Part shown: in pieces, positions 3,397-31,889 of the stretch
Layout of the letters: each line of letters starts with the position of its first letter
Numbering within the stretch: the first letter of the stretch is position 1
Sequence record: NC_028927.1
Strand: one strand, 5' to 3'
Source of the DNA: Escherichia phage slur02
Length of the DNA: 64,000 bases
Notes under the pieces: model-generated
Databases searched by the model: none
What the model saw: the letters and a program-made list of their open reading frames with translations, nothing else
What the model was told of the DNA's origin: nothing
Translations under genes and position numbers: made by a program

Positions 3397-3468
3397 AAAT
3401 TTACCATACTAGTGAATGTAGTGCCATAATAACATCAGAAATGAAAAGCACGACTTGAATTAATCCGA
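3397..3468 (-). CDS. very small hydrophobic ORF (23 aa), possible 52.1-like peptide
   Basis: MFGLIQVVLFISDVIMALHSLVW read on minus strand just upstream of gene 52 start; weak SD. Confidence 0.2.
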
Positions 3469-3533
3469 ACATTATTCCGTAATATAATGCTATCAATAAA
3501 ATAGCAAGGGCTAATGAATAGCCCAAGATTTTC

Positions 3534-3692
3534 TTAATCATTAGTAGATAACAACACAAATGTTAAATATGCACACATACCCTGAGCTAAAGCTTGCGAA
3601 AACACACTGCTGGCATCAATACAGATAGTTAAAACACATGCTACTATCCAACAAATAAATGAAATAACTCCTAATAATTTTGCAATATTCAT
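3534..3692 (-). CDS. ac: Ac, small membrane protein (acriflavine sensitivity)
   Basis: 52-aa hydrophobic ORF MNIAKLLGVISFICWIVACVLTICIDASSVFSQALAQGMCAYLTFVLLSTND; GAGGA SD; position between 52 and stp as in T4. Confidence 0.6.
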   Translation of the reverse strand: MNIAKLLGVISFICWIVACVLTICIDASSVFSQALAQGMCAYLTFVLLSTND

Positions 3693-3699
3693 ATTTTCC

Positions 3700-3780
3700 T
3701 CACTGGTGTCCGAAGACGCCTTTGGTTTTAAGATTGTTACGATAGAACTGCATCACGTGTTCGTTGTGGAAATTACTCAT
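3700..3780 (-). CDS. stp: Stp peptide (26 aa), modulator of host Prr anticodon nuclease/restriction complex
   Basis: Hand translation [26 protein letters not shown]; TAATG overlap with ndd stop. Confidence 0.7.
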
Positions 3781-4238
3781 TAATATGCCTGCAAAACAAA
3801 TTTAAAGTTATCAGCCAACATACGGTTCATTTCTTCAAGTGTTTGATACTCAGAATGATGATTACGAGTAAACGCTAAAGCTAACTGTCCTTTTCCAAAT
3901 CCCGTCGTCAGAGGTTTCATCTTAGAAGCAGGCAGATAAAATACTGTGTATGGAACATTGTTATTTGCAATAGTACGTGCAAGTTGAGACCGACGCTGGC
4001 GAATATGACTTAGAACCGCACTGAATCCTTGCTTAGAACGCTGATTACCTACATAAAATCGTGCAGACACACATGGATTACTAAATGGACGACCATCTAA
4101 TTTACTTACTAAAAAGTAAAATCCAGGTTTAGATAAAATATCTTTATGCGGAGTTCCTAAAAACCATTCACCACCCTTGATTGTACCAATAACAGTTGCG
4201 CCTGCATTATTCAGATCAGTAACAGTCATGTATTTCAT
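3780..4238 (-). CDS. ndd: Ndd, nucleoid disruption protein
   Basis: Track ORF trimmed to internal ATG with GAGGA SD ([18 protein letters not shown]...), about 152 aa as in T4. Confidence 0.85.
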
Positions 4239-4298
4239 ATTAATTTCCTCTAAATTATTTTCTACTCCAAGGCCGCATAAATACACACGGCCATTAAA

Positions 4299-4514
4299 TT
4301 AATCGTCGCAGTCGACGCTCAATTCCCAAAACTCTTCTACAGTATAAGTTTCAGTATCATTTTCAATACAGAAACGTTCATTACTGTTATTTGCTAAAGT
4401 AGCGTTAACTGTCATTTTCTCGCTGGTGCTCTTAAGAGGTGAAATACGAATTAACTGATCACCGTTATCTAAACAGAAAATTTCACCAACTTTTACATCT
4501 TTAAAGATTTTCAT
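4299..4514 (-). CDS. hypothetical protein (71 aa)
   Basis: Track ORF in ndd-denB small-gene cluster. Confidence 0.45.
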   Translation of the reverse strand: MKIFKDVKVGEIFCLDNGDQLIRISPLKSTSEKMTVNATLANNSNERFCIENDTETYTVEEFWELSVDCDD

Positions 4515-4517
4515 AAT

Positions 4518-4631
4518 TCACCTCAAGGAGTATAAAATCCAAATGCAGTTGTTGACCATCCCATCCAATACGGAAAAATTTGCACCAATGTAAAACATAA
4601 GAATATAAAACCAAATGTTTAGTAAATTCAT
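4518..4631 (-). CDS. small hydrophobic peptide (37 aa)
   Basis: Hand-translated MNLLNIWFYILMFYIGANFSVLDGMVNNCIWILYSLR; TAATG coupling to upstream gene. Confidence 0.3.
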   Translation of the reverse strand: MNLLNIWFYILMFYIGANFSVLDGMVNNCIWILYSLR

Positions 4632-4828
4632 TATTTTACACCATTCCAAATTGTTTCAACCACAGATTTTAAACCATTTTGATGAATATCAATTCCGACT
4701 ACTGTCATCAAATAGATTCCAACTACAACTGAACCTAAGGCAAAAATCAGCATGAAAATGAATAAAGCCGGAAAAATATTATCGAAAAACCATTCAATAA
4801 ATGTAAAAGCACTGCGTTTACGCTTCAT
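4631..4828 (-). CDS. small membrane protein (65 aa)
   Basis: Track ORF trimmed to ATG with GAGGA SD (MKRKRSAFTF...); hydrophobic helix. Confidence 0.4.
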   Translation of the reverse strand: MKRKRSAFTFIEWFFDNIFPALFIFMLIFALGSVVVGIYLMTVVGIDIHQNGLKSVVETIWNGVK

Positions 4829-4835
4829 ATTTTCC

Positions 4836-4949
4836 TCACATAAATCCAAAGTAAACGTTTAATACATCAATCATTAAAACGATTGGGAATATACTCAAAA
4901 CTATTAGTATTATAACTACATTCCATATAGCTTTAATAATCTTTTTCAT
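4836..4949 (-). CDS. small membrane peptide (37 aa)
   Basis: MKKIIKAIWNVVIILIVLSIFPIVLMIDVLNVYFGFM; the longer track ORF contains an early promoter, so start moved to ATG after GGAGGAACAG. Confidence 0.35.
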   Translation of the reverse strand: MKKIIKAIWNVVIILIVLSIFPIVLMIDVLNVYFGFM

Positions 4950-5192
4950 TTTCTGTTCCTCCGTAGTTGATAGGGTAATAATACCACGGAAGAACAGTCC
5001 TGTAAACAACTTTTTTAAAAATATTCGTAATAAATGTGAATACCAACTACTACCGCTGAAACCTGTGCAACCCACCACGCACAAGCAATAAGTACAGAAT
5101 TCATAATTTTCATAATAACCTCATCACAAAAGTAAATGTTAAACAAATTACTGGAATACTAATTAACCAAACAAAACACCACCATAGTGAAC

Positions 5193-5465
5193 TCATAGCT
5201 CAATCTCAGCGATTTTCATTTCATTACTATTAATAGCCGCTTTAAGACTATCTGAAAGAATTACATTCCAGTGGTCATTCATATGACCATTAATTAAGCG
5301 TGTAATTTCTTCTGGAGTTGAAAAATAAGGCGTATCAGACTCCCAATGCGATAATCCTAAGCGAGTATAAATCATACCTTCATCATCGCTAGAATATTCA
5401 ACTGACACAAACTCATCAGTTATTTTATGTTTAGCGTAATAAAATTTAAATTTCATTTTACTCAA
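5193..5465 (-). CDS. hypothetical protein (90 aa)
   Basis: Track ORF; ATGA overlap with upstream ORF. Confidence 0.5.
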   Translation of the reverse strand: MSKMKFKFYYAKHKITDEFVSVEYSSDDEGMIYTRLGLSHWESDTPYFSTPEEITRLINGHMNDHWNVILSDSLKAAINSNEMKIAEIEL

Positions 5466-5668
5466 TAATCCGCTAAAAGATCGACGATTGCATCACGAAG
5501 ACACTTATTCGCAATACGTTTAAGAGCAATTTCAGTTTCTGGAGCATTTTGAATAATCATCGAATTCAACTCAGCCTCAGCAAACTGAAGTTCTTTAACT
5601 AGTTCAGCTTTATATTTCCCTTGCCCTTTCTTAGCCTTTGCCCGTTTTAATTCAGCTGTAGTAAACAT
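5462..5668 (-). CDS. hypothetical protein (68 aa)
   Basis: Track ORF trimmed to ATG after conserved leader TTGGAGAATAAAATG. Confidence 0.5.
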   Translation of the reverse strand: MFTTAELKRAKAKKGQGKYKAELVKELQFAEAELNSMIIQNAPETEIALKRIANKCLRDAIVDLLADY

Positions 5669-5695
5669 TTTATTCTCCAAATCCGTATCAGTTGA

Positions 5696-5738
5696 TAGTT
5701 GTATAGTACCACAGTCCTTGTGGTATGTAAACTGTTTT
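5696..5738 (-). promoter_or_regulatory. early promoter with conserved leader
   Basis: GTTTAC, about 17 nt, TACTAT, followed by leader ending TTGGAGAATAAAATG. Confidence 0.55.
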
Positions 5739-5750
5739 ATGAAATTTTTT

Positions 5751-6308
5751 TTAAATAGAAAGATACCATCCGTTGTAGTTGCTTTTTCTTACAACCTTAC
5801 GAAGGTCTTCTCTGTCACCGATGAACTTCGGAGTGTACTGGATGACACCTGGATGAATTTCTTTAGTGTTGAATATAATTATACAGTCCGCGACTTGATG
5901 ATTTAGAATGGGCCCTAGATTTATTCCAGAACCGTATGGATACTCTCCGCTGCATCCTGTTGTTACAGAAATCCAACGTGAGTCAGTTTGGTGTGTCTTA
6001 ACTTCTACACGAAGCCCGCAGTATCTTGGATGCGCCAATACATCCCATGCGTATGTATACGGGTCATTAACATCTTCTTGACCTTTATTAACATATCCGC
6101 TTAGCCAATCTGCCACAAAAAACTCTGCGTACACAGCGATACGACATCTTTCGATAACTTCTGCTTTATCCTGGTTCGGGTTTTGTTTTAAAGAGTATCT
6201 TGCTGTATCAGCAATTTTGACCTTCATTTCACTAGTCAAGTCACTGTTCGATAGGGTAAATGTCGGAATCTGAAATAGTCTCTGTAAACCCGGATTCGTT
6301 TTCTGCAT
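5751..6308 (-). CDS. denB: DenB, endonuclease IV
   Basis: 185 aa as in T4 DenB; synteny next to rIIB. Confidence 0.8.
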   Translation of the reverse strand: MQKTNPGLQRLFQIPTFTLSNSDLTSEMKVKIADTARYSLKQNPNQDKAEVIERCRIAVYAEFFVADWLSGYVNKGQEDVNDPYTYAWDVLAHPRYCGLRVEVKTHQTDSRWISVTTGCSGEYPYGSGINLGPILNHQVADCIIIFNTKEIHPGVIQYTPKFIGDREDLRKVVRKSNYNGWYLSI

Positions 6309-6570
6309 TTAGACTTTCCTTTTTGCCGCTGAGATAGGCGTTATATACTTTAAGAGTACCATAATAAATTCGGTCATTTTCATCTAAAGACTCGCGGTCA
6401 AGTTCATCGAGCTCCTTTTTATCCATGACTATAACATCATTACAGTAAAGAAACCCAAGTTTTTCGTGACCAAACTCAAATTTATTACAGTACACAATAT
6501 TAGCGTGATGATTTCCGTGCAGTTTAATCTCTTTTATGTCGGAATCACCGATATTCATACAATAAATCAT
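6241..6570 (-). CDS. hypothetical protein (109 aa)
   Basis: Track ORF; overlaps denB 5' end so one of the two starts is probably internal. Confidence 0.45.
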   Translation of the reverse strand: MIYCMNIGDSDIKEIKLHGNHHANIVYCNKFEFGHEKLGFLYCNDVIVMDKKELDELDRESLDENDRIYYGTLKVYNAYLSGKKESLNAENESGFTETISDSDIYPIEQ

Positions 6571-6608: not shown

Positions 6609-6803
6609 TTACTTGAATTGTGCAATTCTTTTCTCTAGACATTCAGCATAAGATTTCATTGAGATGAACTGTGAAAGTAGTAGTTCTTGCTCAACTGCAC
6701 TAACTGTTAGAAACTTTGCGCTTTCTAAAAATTTGTTCAGTGCATTAATTTTGAGCATTAATTGATCGTATTCTTCTTTTACTCGTGCTTGATAACCTAA
6801 CAT
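6609..6803 (-). CDS. hypothetical protein (64 aa)
   Basis: Track ORF between rIIB and denB; flanked by hairpins. Confidence 0.5.
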   Translation of the reverse strand: MLGYQARVKEEYDQLMLKINALNKFLESAKFLTVSAVEQELLLSQFISMKSYAECLEKRIAQFK

Positions 6804-12754: not shown

Positions 12755-12931
12755 TTACCCTTTAAGTAAGTCGTAAAAACCGCCATTCACATGCTTAGGA
12801 GCAGAAGGCCGACGAGTAGACAGACGATGACATTTAGGACAAACATCATTTTCTCGTTCAGAAATCTTTTTAATTTTTTCATATTCATGCCCGCAATCTT
12901 CGGATTGGCATTTATAATCATACATTGGCAT
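12755..12931 (-). CDS. small zinc-ribbon protein (58 aa, two CxxC pairs)
   Basis: Hand-translated MPMYDYKCQSEDCGHEYEKIKKISERENDVCPKCHRLSTRRPSAPKHVNGGFYDLLKG; coupled to flanking genes. Confidence 0.45.
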   Translation of the reverse strand: MPMYDYKCQSEDCGHEYEKIKKISERENDVCPKCHRLSTRRPSAPKHVNGGFYDLLKG

Positions 12932-25683: not shown

Positions 25684-26266
25684 AAACATTTACTTTAGAC
25701 TGTTTTTCAGATGGCAATTCATATCCACATATTACAATTTTATGATCAATATCAAAATACACAGAAGCAATATGATTAATGATATTTTCAGTGAAGTCTA
25801 AATCGACATCAATATCTTTTTGACCAAATCCCAGAGGATAAATAATGCGAGTAATTCGATTATCTTTAACAAAGATTCCACCGACATACTCTGTACTGCG
25901 TTTAAAGTCTACACGCCGACGAAATGAAAAATATTCAGGCTCTTTATGAGCTCGGCTCATAGGACACAACGAATAACTAGAATAAGAGATGTCAAATCCT
26001 ACGCCTTCGATATGAGCCAAAGTGTCATGATTAAACCAATTATAATCGTACGCCAAATCCATTAGATTATAATATGTAAAAGGCACCGGATTAACATCAT
26101 TAGTCACAAGCATGTAATTAGCAACTGCTATAATTTCATTGTTTTTAACGAATACAAACCGTGATTGATGCGAATGACCTGGACCCGCGTTTTCACGATT
26201 AATGATATAACACTGGGCACCTTTATATTTGTATGTATCTTTGCACTTGTGCATTTGATAGAGCAT
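25640..26266 (-). CDS. hypothetical protein (208 aa)
   Basis: Track ORF; shares C-terminal SIDDQIFNAFMNR with neighbour. Confidence 0.5.
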   Translation of the reverse strand: MLYQMHKCKDTYKYKGAQCYIINRENAGPGHSHQSRFVFVKNNEIIAVANYMLVTNDVNPVPFTYYNLMDLAYDYNWFNHDTLAHIEGVGFDISYSSYSLCPMSRAHKEPEYFSFRRRVDFKRSTEYVGGIFVKDNRITRIIYPLGFGQKDIDVDLDFTENIINHIASVYFDIDHKIVICGYELPSEKQSKVNVSIDDQIFNAFMNRD

Positions 26267-26559
26267 TATTCACCTACCACTTCAGCGATGATATTTTTGT
26301 TATTAAAGTTTTTATCGCAATACAGAACATAATTATACTGCATTACACCACCAGACTTAAGTTGTTTTTGCACTTCAGCTTTCATTTCAGGGCGATCGCG
26401 CTCAACGATATTCATAATATCTGCTTCAATTTGAGTTTCAACTTCAGTCTGATCCGCAGTCATAGACCATTCGCACAAATCTTTATCATAACCTGCCATA
26501 GCAGGCTGAGCAGCACAAGAAGCTAAAGCAAAAATTGTGGCAAAGATAAATTTTTTCAT
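26266..26559 (-). CDS. sp: Spackle periplasmic protein
   Basis: 97 aa with signal peptide; position between 61 and 41. Confidence 0.75.
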   Translation of the reverse strand: MKKFIFATIFALASCAAQPAMAGYDKDLCEWSMTADQTEVETQIEADIMNIVERDRPEMKAEVQKQLKSGGVMQYNYVLYCDKNFNNKNIIAEVVGE

Positions 26560-31739: not shown

Positions 31740-31889
31740 TCAATTGATACATTCATATTTAACTTGTAACAGTAATAAGCTCCAACCTAAAATAATAGTT
31801 GGAATCATAAGAGGAACCGTTACACTATAGTATATACTTATTATAACCATCAAGATTAAAAGCAACACTGTTATAATTTTGCTTTTCAT
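31740..31889 (-). CDS. small membrane peptide (49 aa)
   Basis: Hand-translated MKSKIITVLLLILMVIISIYYSVTVPLMIPTIILGWSLLLLQVKYECIN; ATGA coupling to imm. Confidence 0.35.
   Translation of the reverse strand: MKSKIITVLLLILMVIISIYYSVTVPLMIPTIILGWSLLLLQVKYECIN

Follow-up and report, generated by a model that had tools for sequence, protein, structure and literature searches.

Positions 4299-5680 on the minus strand of a 64,000-nucleotide stretch of Escherichia phage slur02 (NC_028927.1), referred to here in its full length as the window, lie between the genes ndd and denB and were found to contain eight ATG-initiated open reading frames (ORFs) encoding 28-87 amino acids (aa). Six of these are orthologues of ndd.1, ndd.2, ndd.2a, ndd.4, ndd.5, and ndd.6 of phage T4. 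The interval corresponds to the catalogued accessory block ndd.1-ndd.6 of the T4 D region, together with two soluble ORFs that have no T4 counterpart. Taken as a whole, that is, with block identity, organization, peptides, and mechanism considered together, the explanation developed below is judged likely, and individual elements of it are graded separately where they arise. Coordinates follow the numbering of the stretch unless T4 or contig numbering is stated. Because its members are orthologous to named T4 genes, the block is not new; names for the genes and membrane predictions for their products date back to the annotation of the T4 genome decades ago.

Positions 3400-6400 were 100% identical to the equivalent regions of Escherichia phages slur04, slur11, and slur13 (Tequatrovirus), and the stretch was matched by 563 phage records. 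In the annotated records of slur04, RB14, and T4, the gene order is 52, 52.1, ac, stp, ndd, ndd.1 through ndd.6, denB, and rIIB, with all genes on the minus strand. The T4 block, comprising ndd.1, ndd.2, ndd.2a (with ndd.3), ndd.4, ndd.5, and ndd.6 (NC_000866, T4p269-T4p275), resembles that of the window in its position between ndd and denB, in strand, in gene order, in its predicted-membrane labels, and in 95-100% protein identity: 100% for ndd.4 and ndd.6, 97% for ndd.5 and ndd.1, and 95% for ndd.2a. For ndd.2, the match to the T4 protein is limited to the N-terminal 19 aa because the gene is frameshifted here. The window further differs from T4 in that ndd.6 and denB are separated by two additional ORFs for soluble products (87 and 68 aa) and in that ndd.2a has an intact 65-aa form. 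In T4, each member of the block is entered as a “hypothetical predicted” protein of the membrane or periplasm. An earlier reading of this DNA from its sequence alone (hereafter the sequence-only reading) had placed several ORFs of the cluster below the cutoff of its ORF list. They are not overlooked genes, all of them being named as ndd.1-ndd.6 in the annotations of T4 and RB14. In the slur04 RefSeq record, annotation of the block is limited to ndd.1, ndd.2a, ndd.5, and two further ORFs; ndd.2, ndd.4, ndd.6, stp, and 52.1 are missing.

The arrangement of the ORFs was far from that expected by chance. Those on the minus strand covered 93% of the interval, and four of the eight were strongly hydrophobic. 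In 1000 dinucleotide shuffles, a mean of 2.9 ORFs, 23% coverage (maximum 59%), and 0.15 hydrophobic ORFs were obtained, and the observed values were reached in none. The plus strand of the same interval yielded two short ORFs, 18% coverage, and no hydrophobic product. The cluster of tiny ORFs between ndd and denB described in the sequence-only reading is thus borne out. From orf68 through ndd.1, the stop-to-start distances were, in order, +5, -4, -4, +65, +7, -1, and +3 nucleotides (nt). The two -4 junctions are ATGA overlaps (orf87 stop with ndd.6 start, and ndd.6 stop with ndd.5 start), and the -1 junction of ndd.2a and ndd.2 reads TAATG. These distances agree with the translational coupling of at least six ORFs proposed earlier, the +65 spacer between ndd.5 and ndd.4 being the junction that contains a putative promoter (P2).

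Translation signals were evident at most of the starts. Predicted duplexes between Shine-Dalgarno (SD) and anti-SD sequences ranged from -5.2 to -9.5 kcal/mol for ndd.1, ndd.2, ndd.2a, ndd.4, ndd.5, and orf68, whereas -5 kcal/mol was reached by just 12.9% of all minus-strand ATGs. The best site was that of ndd.4 (GGAGGA, -9.5 kcal/mol), and that of orf68 reached -6.4 kcal/mol. The SD sites of ndd.6 and orf87 are weak, and both starts overlap or directly follow the preceding stop. The sequence-only reading had given ORF lengths of 27-72 codons; its 72-codon versions relied on upstream TTG codons and did not stand, the conserved starts being ATGs that give products of 68 and 65 aa. The ORFs ndd.2a, ndd.4, ndd.5, and ndd.6 are very probably real translated genes, and somewhat less confidence attaches to ndd.2; we infer that all five peptides are made.

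Conservation was assessed by comparing 13 Tequatrovirus loci, one Mosigvirus (phage 55), and one Dhakavirus (JS10). The start, length, and frame of ndd.1, ndd.2a, ndd.4, ndd.5, and ndd.6 were kept in 11-13 of the 13 Tequatrovirus loci, and ndd.5 was intact in all 13. Variable sites in ndd.2a, ndd.5, ndd.6, and ndd.1 were concentrated at the third codon position, and ratios of nonsynonymous to synonymous polymorphism (pN/pS) were low (Table 1). These four genes are under strong purifying selection, comparable with that on the control genes ndd and denB. Beyond the genus, ndd.6, ndd.4, and ndd.1 remained recognizable, with ratios of nonsynonymous to synonymous divergence (dN/dS) of 0.16-0.5, and length, start, and stop were kept as nucleotide identity dropped to 61-69%. 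For ndd.4, the comparison with JS10 gave a dN/dS of 0.16 at 69% nucleotide identity; for ndd.6, position and length were retained in phage 55 and JS10 at 48-54% identity, with a dN/dS of 0.26-0.51.

Matches to ndd.6 were found in 492 phage records, to ndd.2a in 493, and to ndd.4 in 595, about 100 of the last at 60-80% identity. The most widely distributed member, ndd.1, was found in 851 records, extending to T4-like phages of Klebsiella, and canonical ndd.2 was found in ∼483 records, to which weak matches in Klebsiella phages are added. The tblastn count for ndd.5 is uninformative because even perfect matches barely pass the E-value limit. The sequence-only reading had named conservation and synonymous-site analysis as checks and had held that missing translation signals together with missing frame conservation would speak against it. 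Instead, SD sites are present, and the frames are kept in hundreds of relatives (∼490-850 records) with third-position-biased variation.

Nucleotide diversity in the small ORFs was 0.015-0.054, with a low-diversity tract (0.014-0.019) at 4750-4949 covering ndd.4 and the start of ndd.2a. Within ndd.4, only one third-position site varied in 13 genomes. Low synonymous variation was considered as a special signal of ndd.4 and set aside, as similar tracts occur inside denB and it is not clearly special; the tract may reflect recombination history.

Table 1. Features of the block and its surroundings. KD, mean Kyte-Doolittle hydropathy of the best 19-residue core (membrane threshold ∼1.6); MFE, minimum free energy. 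Promoters were located by consensus scan.
Feature	Position	Strand	Description	Variable sites, codon position 1/2/3	pN/pS
P1	5703-5731	minus	Putative early promoter; TTTACA-17-TG-TACTAT, upstream A-tract		
orf68	5462-5668	minus	68 aa, soluble, helical; RB32ORF266c type; PHROG 4535		
orf87	5193-5456	minus	87 aa, soluble; RB14ncORF269c / RB69ORF270c type		
ndd.6	5110-5196	minus	28 aa, single helix MSSLWWCFVWLISIPVICLTFTFVMRLL; KD 2.33; PHROG 8851	2/0/3	0.07
ndd.5	5015-5113	minus	32 aa, single helix; KD 2.17; PHROG 5011	2/0/7	0.12
P2	4978-5006	minus	Putative early promoter in the 65-nt ndd.5/ndd.4 spacer; TTTACA-17-TG-TATTAT, upstream A-tract		
ndd.4	4836-4949	minus	37 aa, N-terminal KK..K, then one helix; KD 3.06		
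ndd.2a	4631-4828	minus	65 aa; Pfam DUF7248; KD 2.71	3/2/19	0.08
ndd.2	4518-4631	minus	37 aa, frameshifted variant of canonical 35-aa aromatic-rich peptide; KD 1.3-1.55		
ndd.1	4299-4514	minus	71 aa, acidic, soluble; PHROG 2183; most widely conserved block member	1/5/13	0.13
Two stable RNA hairpins	4271-4325	minus	At the ndd.1 stop and in the ndd.1/ndd spacer; MFE -24.4 kcal/mol, z = -3.65		
ndd (control)				10/7/41	0.10
denB (control)				7/5/49	0.03

The membrane threshold was exceeded by ndd.2a, ndd.4, ndd.5, and ndd.6, and ndd.2 was borderline (1.29-1.55). The earlier description of most of the ORFs as encoding one hydrophobic helix therefore holds for five of the eight, with ndd.2 borderline, and fails for ndd.1, orf87, and orf68, the products of which are hydrophilic and soluble. 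Ndd.2a combines a basic N terminus (MKRKR) with a long hydrophobic helix and a 19-aa polar tail. The N-terminal flanks contain four Lys or Arg residues in Ndd.2a, three in Ndd.4 (MKKIIK), and one in Ndd.5 (MK), and an N-in, single-pass inner-membrane orientation is therefore predicted for these three peptides. On the basis of composition, the hydrophobic products are likely to be single-pass inner-membrane microproteins, with insertion and topology as predicted. That such proteins are made early, as the sequence-only reading also held, is backed by the reality of the genes, by promoters of early type, and by early RNA in T4, whereas membrane insertion stands as a prediction.

Many records label these products “outer membrane” or “periplasmic.” Such labels were rejected as propagated predictions: at 28-37 aa and with a single hydrophobic core, the peptides are too small to accommodate both a signal peptide and a mature domain. 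Residues 8-11 of Ndd.5 form a lipobox-like LIAC, with only 10 residues ahead of the Cys; a segment of this length is judged too short for a lipoprotein signal.

Similarity searches characterized the family without assigning an activity. Ndd.2a matched Pfam DUF7248 over residues 6-63 (68.1 bits against a cut-off of 27), and its searches of large databases returned only relatives among T4-like phages, the hits in giant repetitive proteins appearing spurious. No Pfam match was obtained at E≤0.01 for ndd.2, ndd.4, ndd.5, or ndd.6, and no toxin or holin family was matched, DUF7248 being the only family found. PHROG matches of the block products were of unknown function or carried the propagated “periplasmic” and “outer membrane” labels, and no Pfam or PHROG match to the Imm or Sp families was found among them. 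In a paralogy comparison, the Ndd peptides showed no significant similarity to one another. The structure model of Ndd.1 was unusable, with a predicted local distance difference test score (pLDDT) of 47. Seven residues of Ndd.6 (W6, W10, I14, P15, I17, C18, and F21) were invariant across the three genera and lay on one helical face, with a moment of 0.59 against 0.29 expected (P=0.03, three sequences). As judged from these alignments, this one-face conservation is the only direct hint of specific helix packing.

The putative promoters P1 and P2 were conserved in all 13 Tequatrovirus loci. The hexamers of P2 are kept although the spacer that contains them varies more (nucleotide diversity 0.057-0.071) than the flanking ORFs. 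The early-promoter consensus of promoter-early stem-loop (PeSL) cassettes in the T4/PST group is TTTACW-N17-TAYWAT (PMC4122927). Both P1 and P2 match this consensus and adjoin variable small ORFs. Resemblance to PeSL cassettes (Arbiol 2010; Comeau 2014) extends to the promoter, to the variable small ORFs, and to the placement of insertion-deletion boundaries in the leader, but it covers the promoter half of the cassette, only A/T-rich tracts being seen upstream of P1 and P2. From their positions, P1 would drive orf68, orf87, ndd.6, and ndd.5, and P2 would drive ndd.4, ndd.2a, ndd.2, and ndd.1, with probable readthrough into ndd. By RNA sequencing, T4 ndd.1-ndd.6 all fall into the class “early” (PMC9697503, Table S2). 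At the distal end of the block, the stems of the hairpins at 4271-4325, including the second, spacer hairpin, keep their pairing through base changes in relatives. The second hairpin is probably not a simple terminator because no U-tract follows it. No Rfam match was found at E≤1.

Several differences among records were traced to single-base changes or to start choice. In the nucleotide alignment, the T-run at 4574-4578 is one base longer in this genome, so that the canonical C terminus of Ndd.2 (...PYWMGWSTTAFGFYTP) gives way to ...SVLDGMVNNCIWILYSLR. The peptide MNLLNIWFYILMFYIGANF..., offered in the sequence-only reading as an example of the cluster, is indeed ndd.2, although its C-terminal half is frameshifted in this genome. 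The frameshifted form is limited to four slur records (slur04, slur11, and slur13 among them), whereas 11 of 13 loci and ∼483 records keep the canonical 35-aa frame; phage JEP6 carries a separate 13-nt deletion within ndd.2. The slur frameshift may be a genuine lesion of this lineage or may stem from a sequencing error in the homopolymer.

A comparable change affects the T4 reference: at a site where two other T4 records (KJ477684 and OZ035787) and all relatives have ATGAAGCGT, the sequence of NC_000866 is ATGAA-CGT. This one-base deletion, located just after the ATG, accounts for the division of the gene into “ndd.3” and a 40-aa “ndd.2a” (NC_000866, 166548-166628). By alignment with the other records, this division is an artefact, and the real gene is the 65-aa ndd.2a. 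The translation-initiation region of ndd.2a also includes a 16-nt sequence, GTGAGGAAAATATGAA (4828-4843), that recurs identically at ac (3692-3707).

The annotated 42-aa form of T4 Ndd.4 arises from a T4-specific upstream ATG inside the SD region (CTATGGAGG versus CTACGGAGG; window 4940-4965). The conserved start gives 37 aa; in one contig, loss of a single base disrupts the longer frame that extends upstream and leaves the 37-aa ORF intact. An 81-aa in-frame extension of ndd.4 that is annotated in phage fPS-2 runs through the promoter and is unlikely to be real. In many GenBank records, the 71-aa Ndd.1 or the 37-aa Ndd.4 is labeled “naphthalene 1,2-dioxygenase.” This function is implausible because of the product size, and the label is evidently a propagated mis-annotation.

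Some of the observations weigh against the interpretation developed here. The T-rich coding strand (36% T) by itself favors hydrophobic codons. In a T4 proteome time course, Ndd.1 was detected, early, and Ndd.2 to Ndd.6 were not (PMC9697503); given that the established products Stp and Ac were likewise undetected in that proteome (PMC9697503), non-detection of tiny hydrophobic peptides says little. The pN/pS of ndd.4 within Tequatrovirus was 1.26, a value that means little because it derives from only four variable sites. With ndd.2 frameshifted in this genome and deleted in JEP6, at least this member can be lost. The helical-face signal of Ndd.6 is based on just three sequences, and no homology, domain, or structural match pointed to a partner or an activity.

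Certain of these points bear on the notion that the hydrophobic ORFs are not protein-coding at all and arose incidentally from T-rich sequence that is maintained for a role at the RNA or DNA level. The coding strand of the window contains ∼25 small hydrophobic ATG-ORFs, most of them spurious, and the near lack of synonymous variation in ndd.4 and the silence of proteomics would fit such an origin. Against this stand the third-position bias with a pN/pS of ∼0.1, the retention of length, start, and stop across genera at 61-69% nucleotide identity, the SD sites ahead of the starts, the failure of shuffled sequence ever to reproduce the tiling, and the lack of an Rfam match. A non-coding origin is thus close to refuted, and the block is treated below as a set of genes.

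The two soluble ORFs at the promoter-proximal end behave differently from the hydrophobic peptides. Of the 13 loci, orf68 is present only in those of slur04 and RB14 (absent from 11), and T4 lacks it. Its insertion boundaries lie within the conserved promoter/leader cassette, consistent with PeSL-mediated shuffling, and the presence-absence boundaries of orf68 and orf87 fall in the shared leader after P1, as such shuffling predicts. The second ORF, orf87, has no T4 copy and occurs within Tequatrovirus as divergent alleles (52% aa identity, pN/pS 0.44), its nucleotide diversity of 0.19-0.27 contrasting with 0.02-0.05 in the flanks. No structural neighbor was found for its AlphaFold2 model (pLDDT 88). 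Across three genera (Tequatrovirus, Mosigvirus, and Dhakavirus), the order is denB, orf87, ndd.6 (with the ATGA overlap), one or two more transmembrane peptides, ndd.1, and ndd. T4 is the exception to this order, in that ndd.6 is kept without orf87.

A natural in-frame fusion of orf87 and ndd.6 encoding 115 aa was found in a single metagenomic contig (Logan SRR25011005, 2501-2848). Separately, a frameshift at the end of ndd.6 lengthens its product to 83 aa at one IMG/VR locus. It is conceivable, if improbable, that orf87 and Ndd.6 form a two-part module. The soluble, fast-evolving 87-aa protein would be tethered at the inner membrane, or brought there, by the 28-aa helix and would then act on a variable factor of the host envelope; each of the remaining Ndd peptides would have its own host membrane protein as a target, and together they would constitute a toolkit of transmembrane-helix regulators. 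The ATGA-coupled pair in three genera, the single fusion, the one-face conservation of Ndd.6, and the divergent alleles of orf87 speak for such a module, and the retention of ndd.6 without orf87 in T4 speaks against it.

The block is accessory and dispensable in laboratory hosts. In CRISPRi-ART experiments, ac, stp, ndd, ndd.1-ndd.6, and denB were all scored “Not fit,” that is, without measurable fitness loss, the authors conceding a false-negative rate (PMC11879866). The T4 deletion saDelta9 removes 52.1 through denB and is viable, with a burst size 50% of that of the wild type (PMC6071114). Yet ∼500 sequenced T-even phages have kept the peptides almost unchanged, and a role in nature is therefore presumed.

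The following sequence of events is proposed. Within the first minutes of infection, transcription would start at P1 and P2, acting as sigma-70 early promoters of T4 PeSL type, and the transcript from P2 probably continues into ndd, stp, and ac. The genes would be translated in series, and ribosomes could pass from cistron to cistron because stops and starts overlap or lie ≤7 nt apart. Ndd.2, Ndd.2a, Ndd.4, Ndd.5, and Ndd.6 (28-65 residues) would each amount to essentially one inner-membrane helix, which would pack against a particular host or phage inner-membrane protein and so tune envelope physiology during takeover. Any benefit would be conditional, arising in natural hosts or in competition and not in laboratory strains. 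The helix-packing step is proposed tentatively, by analogy, and is held with rather less than even confidence. In bacteria, AcrZ acts on AcrB, MgrB on PhoQ, and MgtS on MgtA, each a single-helix protein of ∼30-50 residues that works by binding a larger membrane protein. The Ndd peptides share this single-helix build without homology, and the analogy serves as a hypothesis. Closer in setting are the T4 products Ac (acridine sensitivity), gp52.1, and MotA.1, together with Imm and Sp (both superinfection exclusion). Like the Ndd peptides, they are early and non-essential and come from the same deletable regions; their lengths are 46-97 aa, and each has one or two hydrophobic helices. Two of them, Ac and Imm, alter envelope behavior, but no sequence relationship to the Ndd peptides was detectable.

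Superinfection exclusion, membrane remodeling, and inhibition of host defenses had all been suggested in the sequence-only reading, and no link of the Ndd peptides to any of them was found in this analysis or in the T4 literature examined. Even so, conditional conflict genes are a possible, though rather unlikely, identity for the peptides: they might block superinfecting phages or neutralize membrane-embedded abortive-infection or defense effectors and would then matter only in hosts with the matching system. The setting favors this, in that the block lies in a hyperplastic, PeSL-flanked accessory region of a kind said to hold adaptive host-range genes (PMC4122927), and its neighbors stp, denB, and rIIB are conflict genes. 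The strong divergence of orf87, which is coupled to ndd.6, the lack of a fitness effect in laboratory hosts, and the coupling of a similar 49-aa peptide to the superinfection-immunity gene imm agree with it. Unlike typical arms-race genes, however, the peptides are almost invariant across ∼490 genomes; the ndd genes go unmentioned in the text of a T4 transposon screen against defense systems, and no Imm or Sp family match was obtained.

A role in lipid metabolism appears improbable. It would attribute to one or more of the peptides the stimulation of phosphatidylglycerol synthesis that follows infection and is abolished by saDelta9, a deletion that includes ndd.1-ndd.6; its authors remark that several products of the region are predicted membrane proteins (PMC6071114). 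Stimulation is also lost in a mutant that lacks only dCTPase, endonuclease IV (denB), and Alc and in rIIDeltaDD2, which overlaps saDelta9 only partly (PMC6071114). The peptides are not specifically implicated because both mutants point to denB or alc at least as much, and Pfam and PHROG searches revealed no similarity to lipid enzymes or regulators.

Nor do we give much credence to the idea that the peptides are small membrane toxins, resembling type I toxins or holins, that would depolarize or permeabilize the host membrane and aid host shut-off. Their size and composition do resemble those of hydrophobic toxin peptides, and many small immediate-early T4 genes are lethal to the host when cloned (Kutter et al.); no Pfam toxin family was matched, however. 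The six growth-inhibitory hits of an early-protein screen in phage AV110 (gp94, gp135, gp204, gp208, gp214, and gp263) lie outside the estimated place of the block, ∼gp100-105, although it is uncertain whether the peptides were included in that screen. Two of these hits were considered as possible members or neighbors of the block and rejected. Emp (AV110 Gp94) is a 109-aa protein encoded elsewhere, beside motA (preprint), and gp263 is not near ndd, the AV110 numbering beginning at the terminase. Moreover, T4 requires an energized membrane early in infection, which argues against depolarization.

Similar small ORFs occur elsewhere in the window. The hydrophobic peptide read at 1922-2071 in the sequence-only reading corresponds to a real gene, motA.1, which had not been overlooked, being annotated in T4, RB14, and slur04. 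The peptide read at 31740-31889 proved to be a real 49-aa hydrophobic ORF (MKSKII...) between gene 42 and imm, its start overlapping the imm stop (ATGA). This ORF matches PHROG 3610 and has a T4 copy at 26227-26376. It is annotated in some relatives (NR1_177 of phage NR1) and is missing from the slur04 and T4 reference annotations; it may be a partner of the superinfection-immunity gene that has escaped notice. A 44-aa ORF with a hydrophobic C-terminal helix and a good SD site (-5.9 kcal/mol) was observed on the minus strand at 12787-12921.

Closer to the block, gp52.1 (46 aa, hydrophobic; 3401-3541) and Stp (26 aa; 3700-3780) are present in the sequence and unannotated in the slur04 RefSeq record. 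Records disagree on the start of denB (5751-6308): slur04 and T6 use the ATG at 6227, for a product of 158 aa, and T4 and RB14 begin at 6308, for one of 185 aa. This longer version runs into the next ORF upstream (6241-6570). A 64-aa DenB.1 homologue (window 6609-6803; contig SRR25011005, 1381-1575) has a precomputed match to Pfam PF21825, “Sequestin.”

The practical value of these findings lies in annotation, namely the omissions from the slur04 record, the “ndd.3” artefact of T4, and the imm-coupled 49-aa ORF missing from the T4 reference. The Ndd peptides belong to the ∼130 T4 genes that are still uncharacterized, and finding their targets could reveal new ways of modulating envelope proteins of Escherichia coli.

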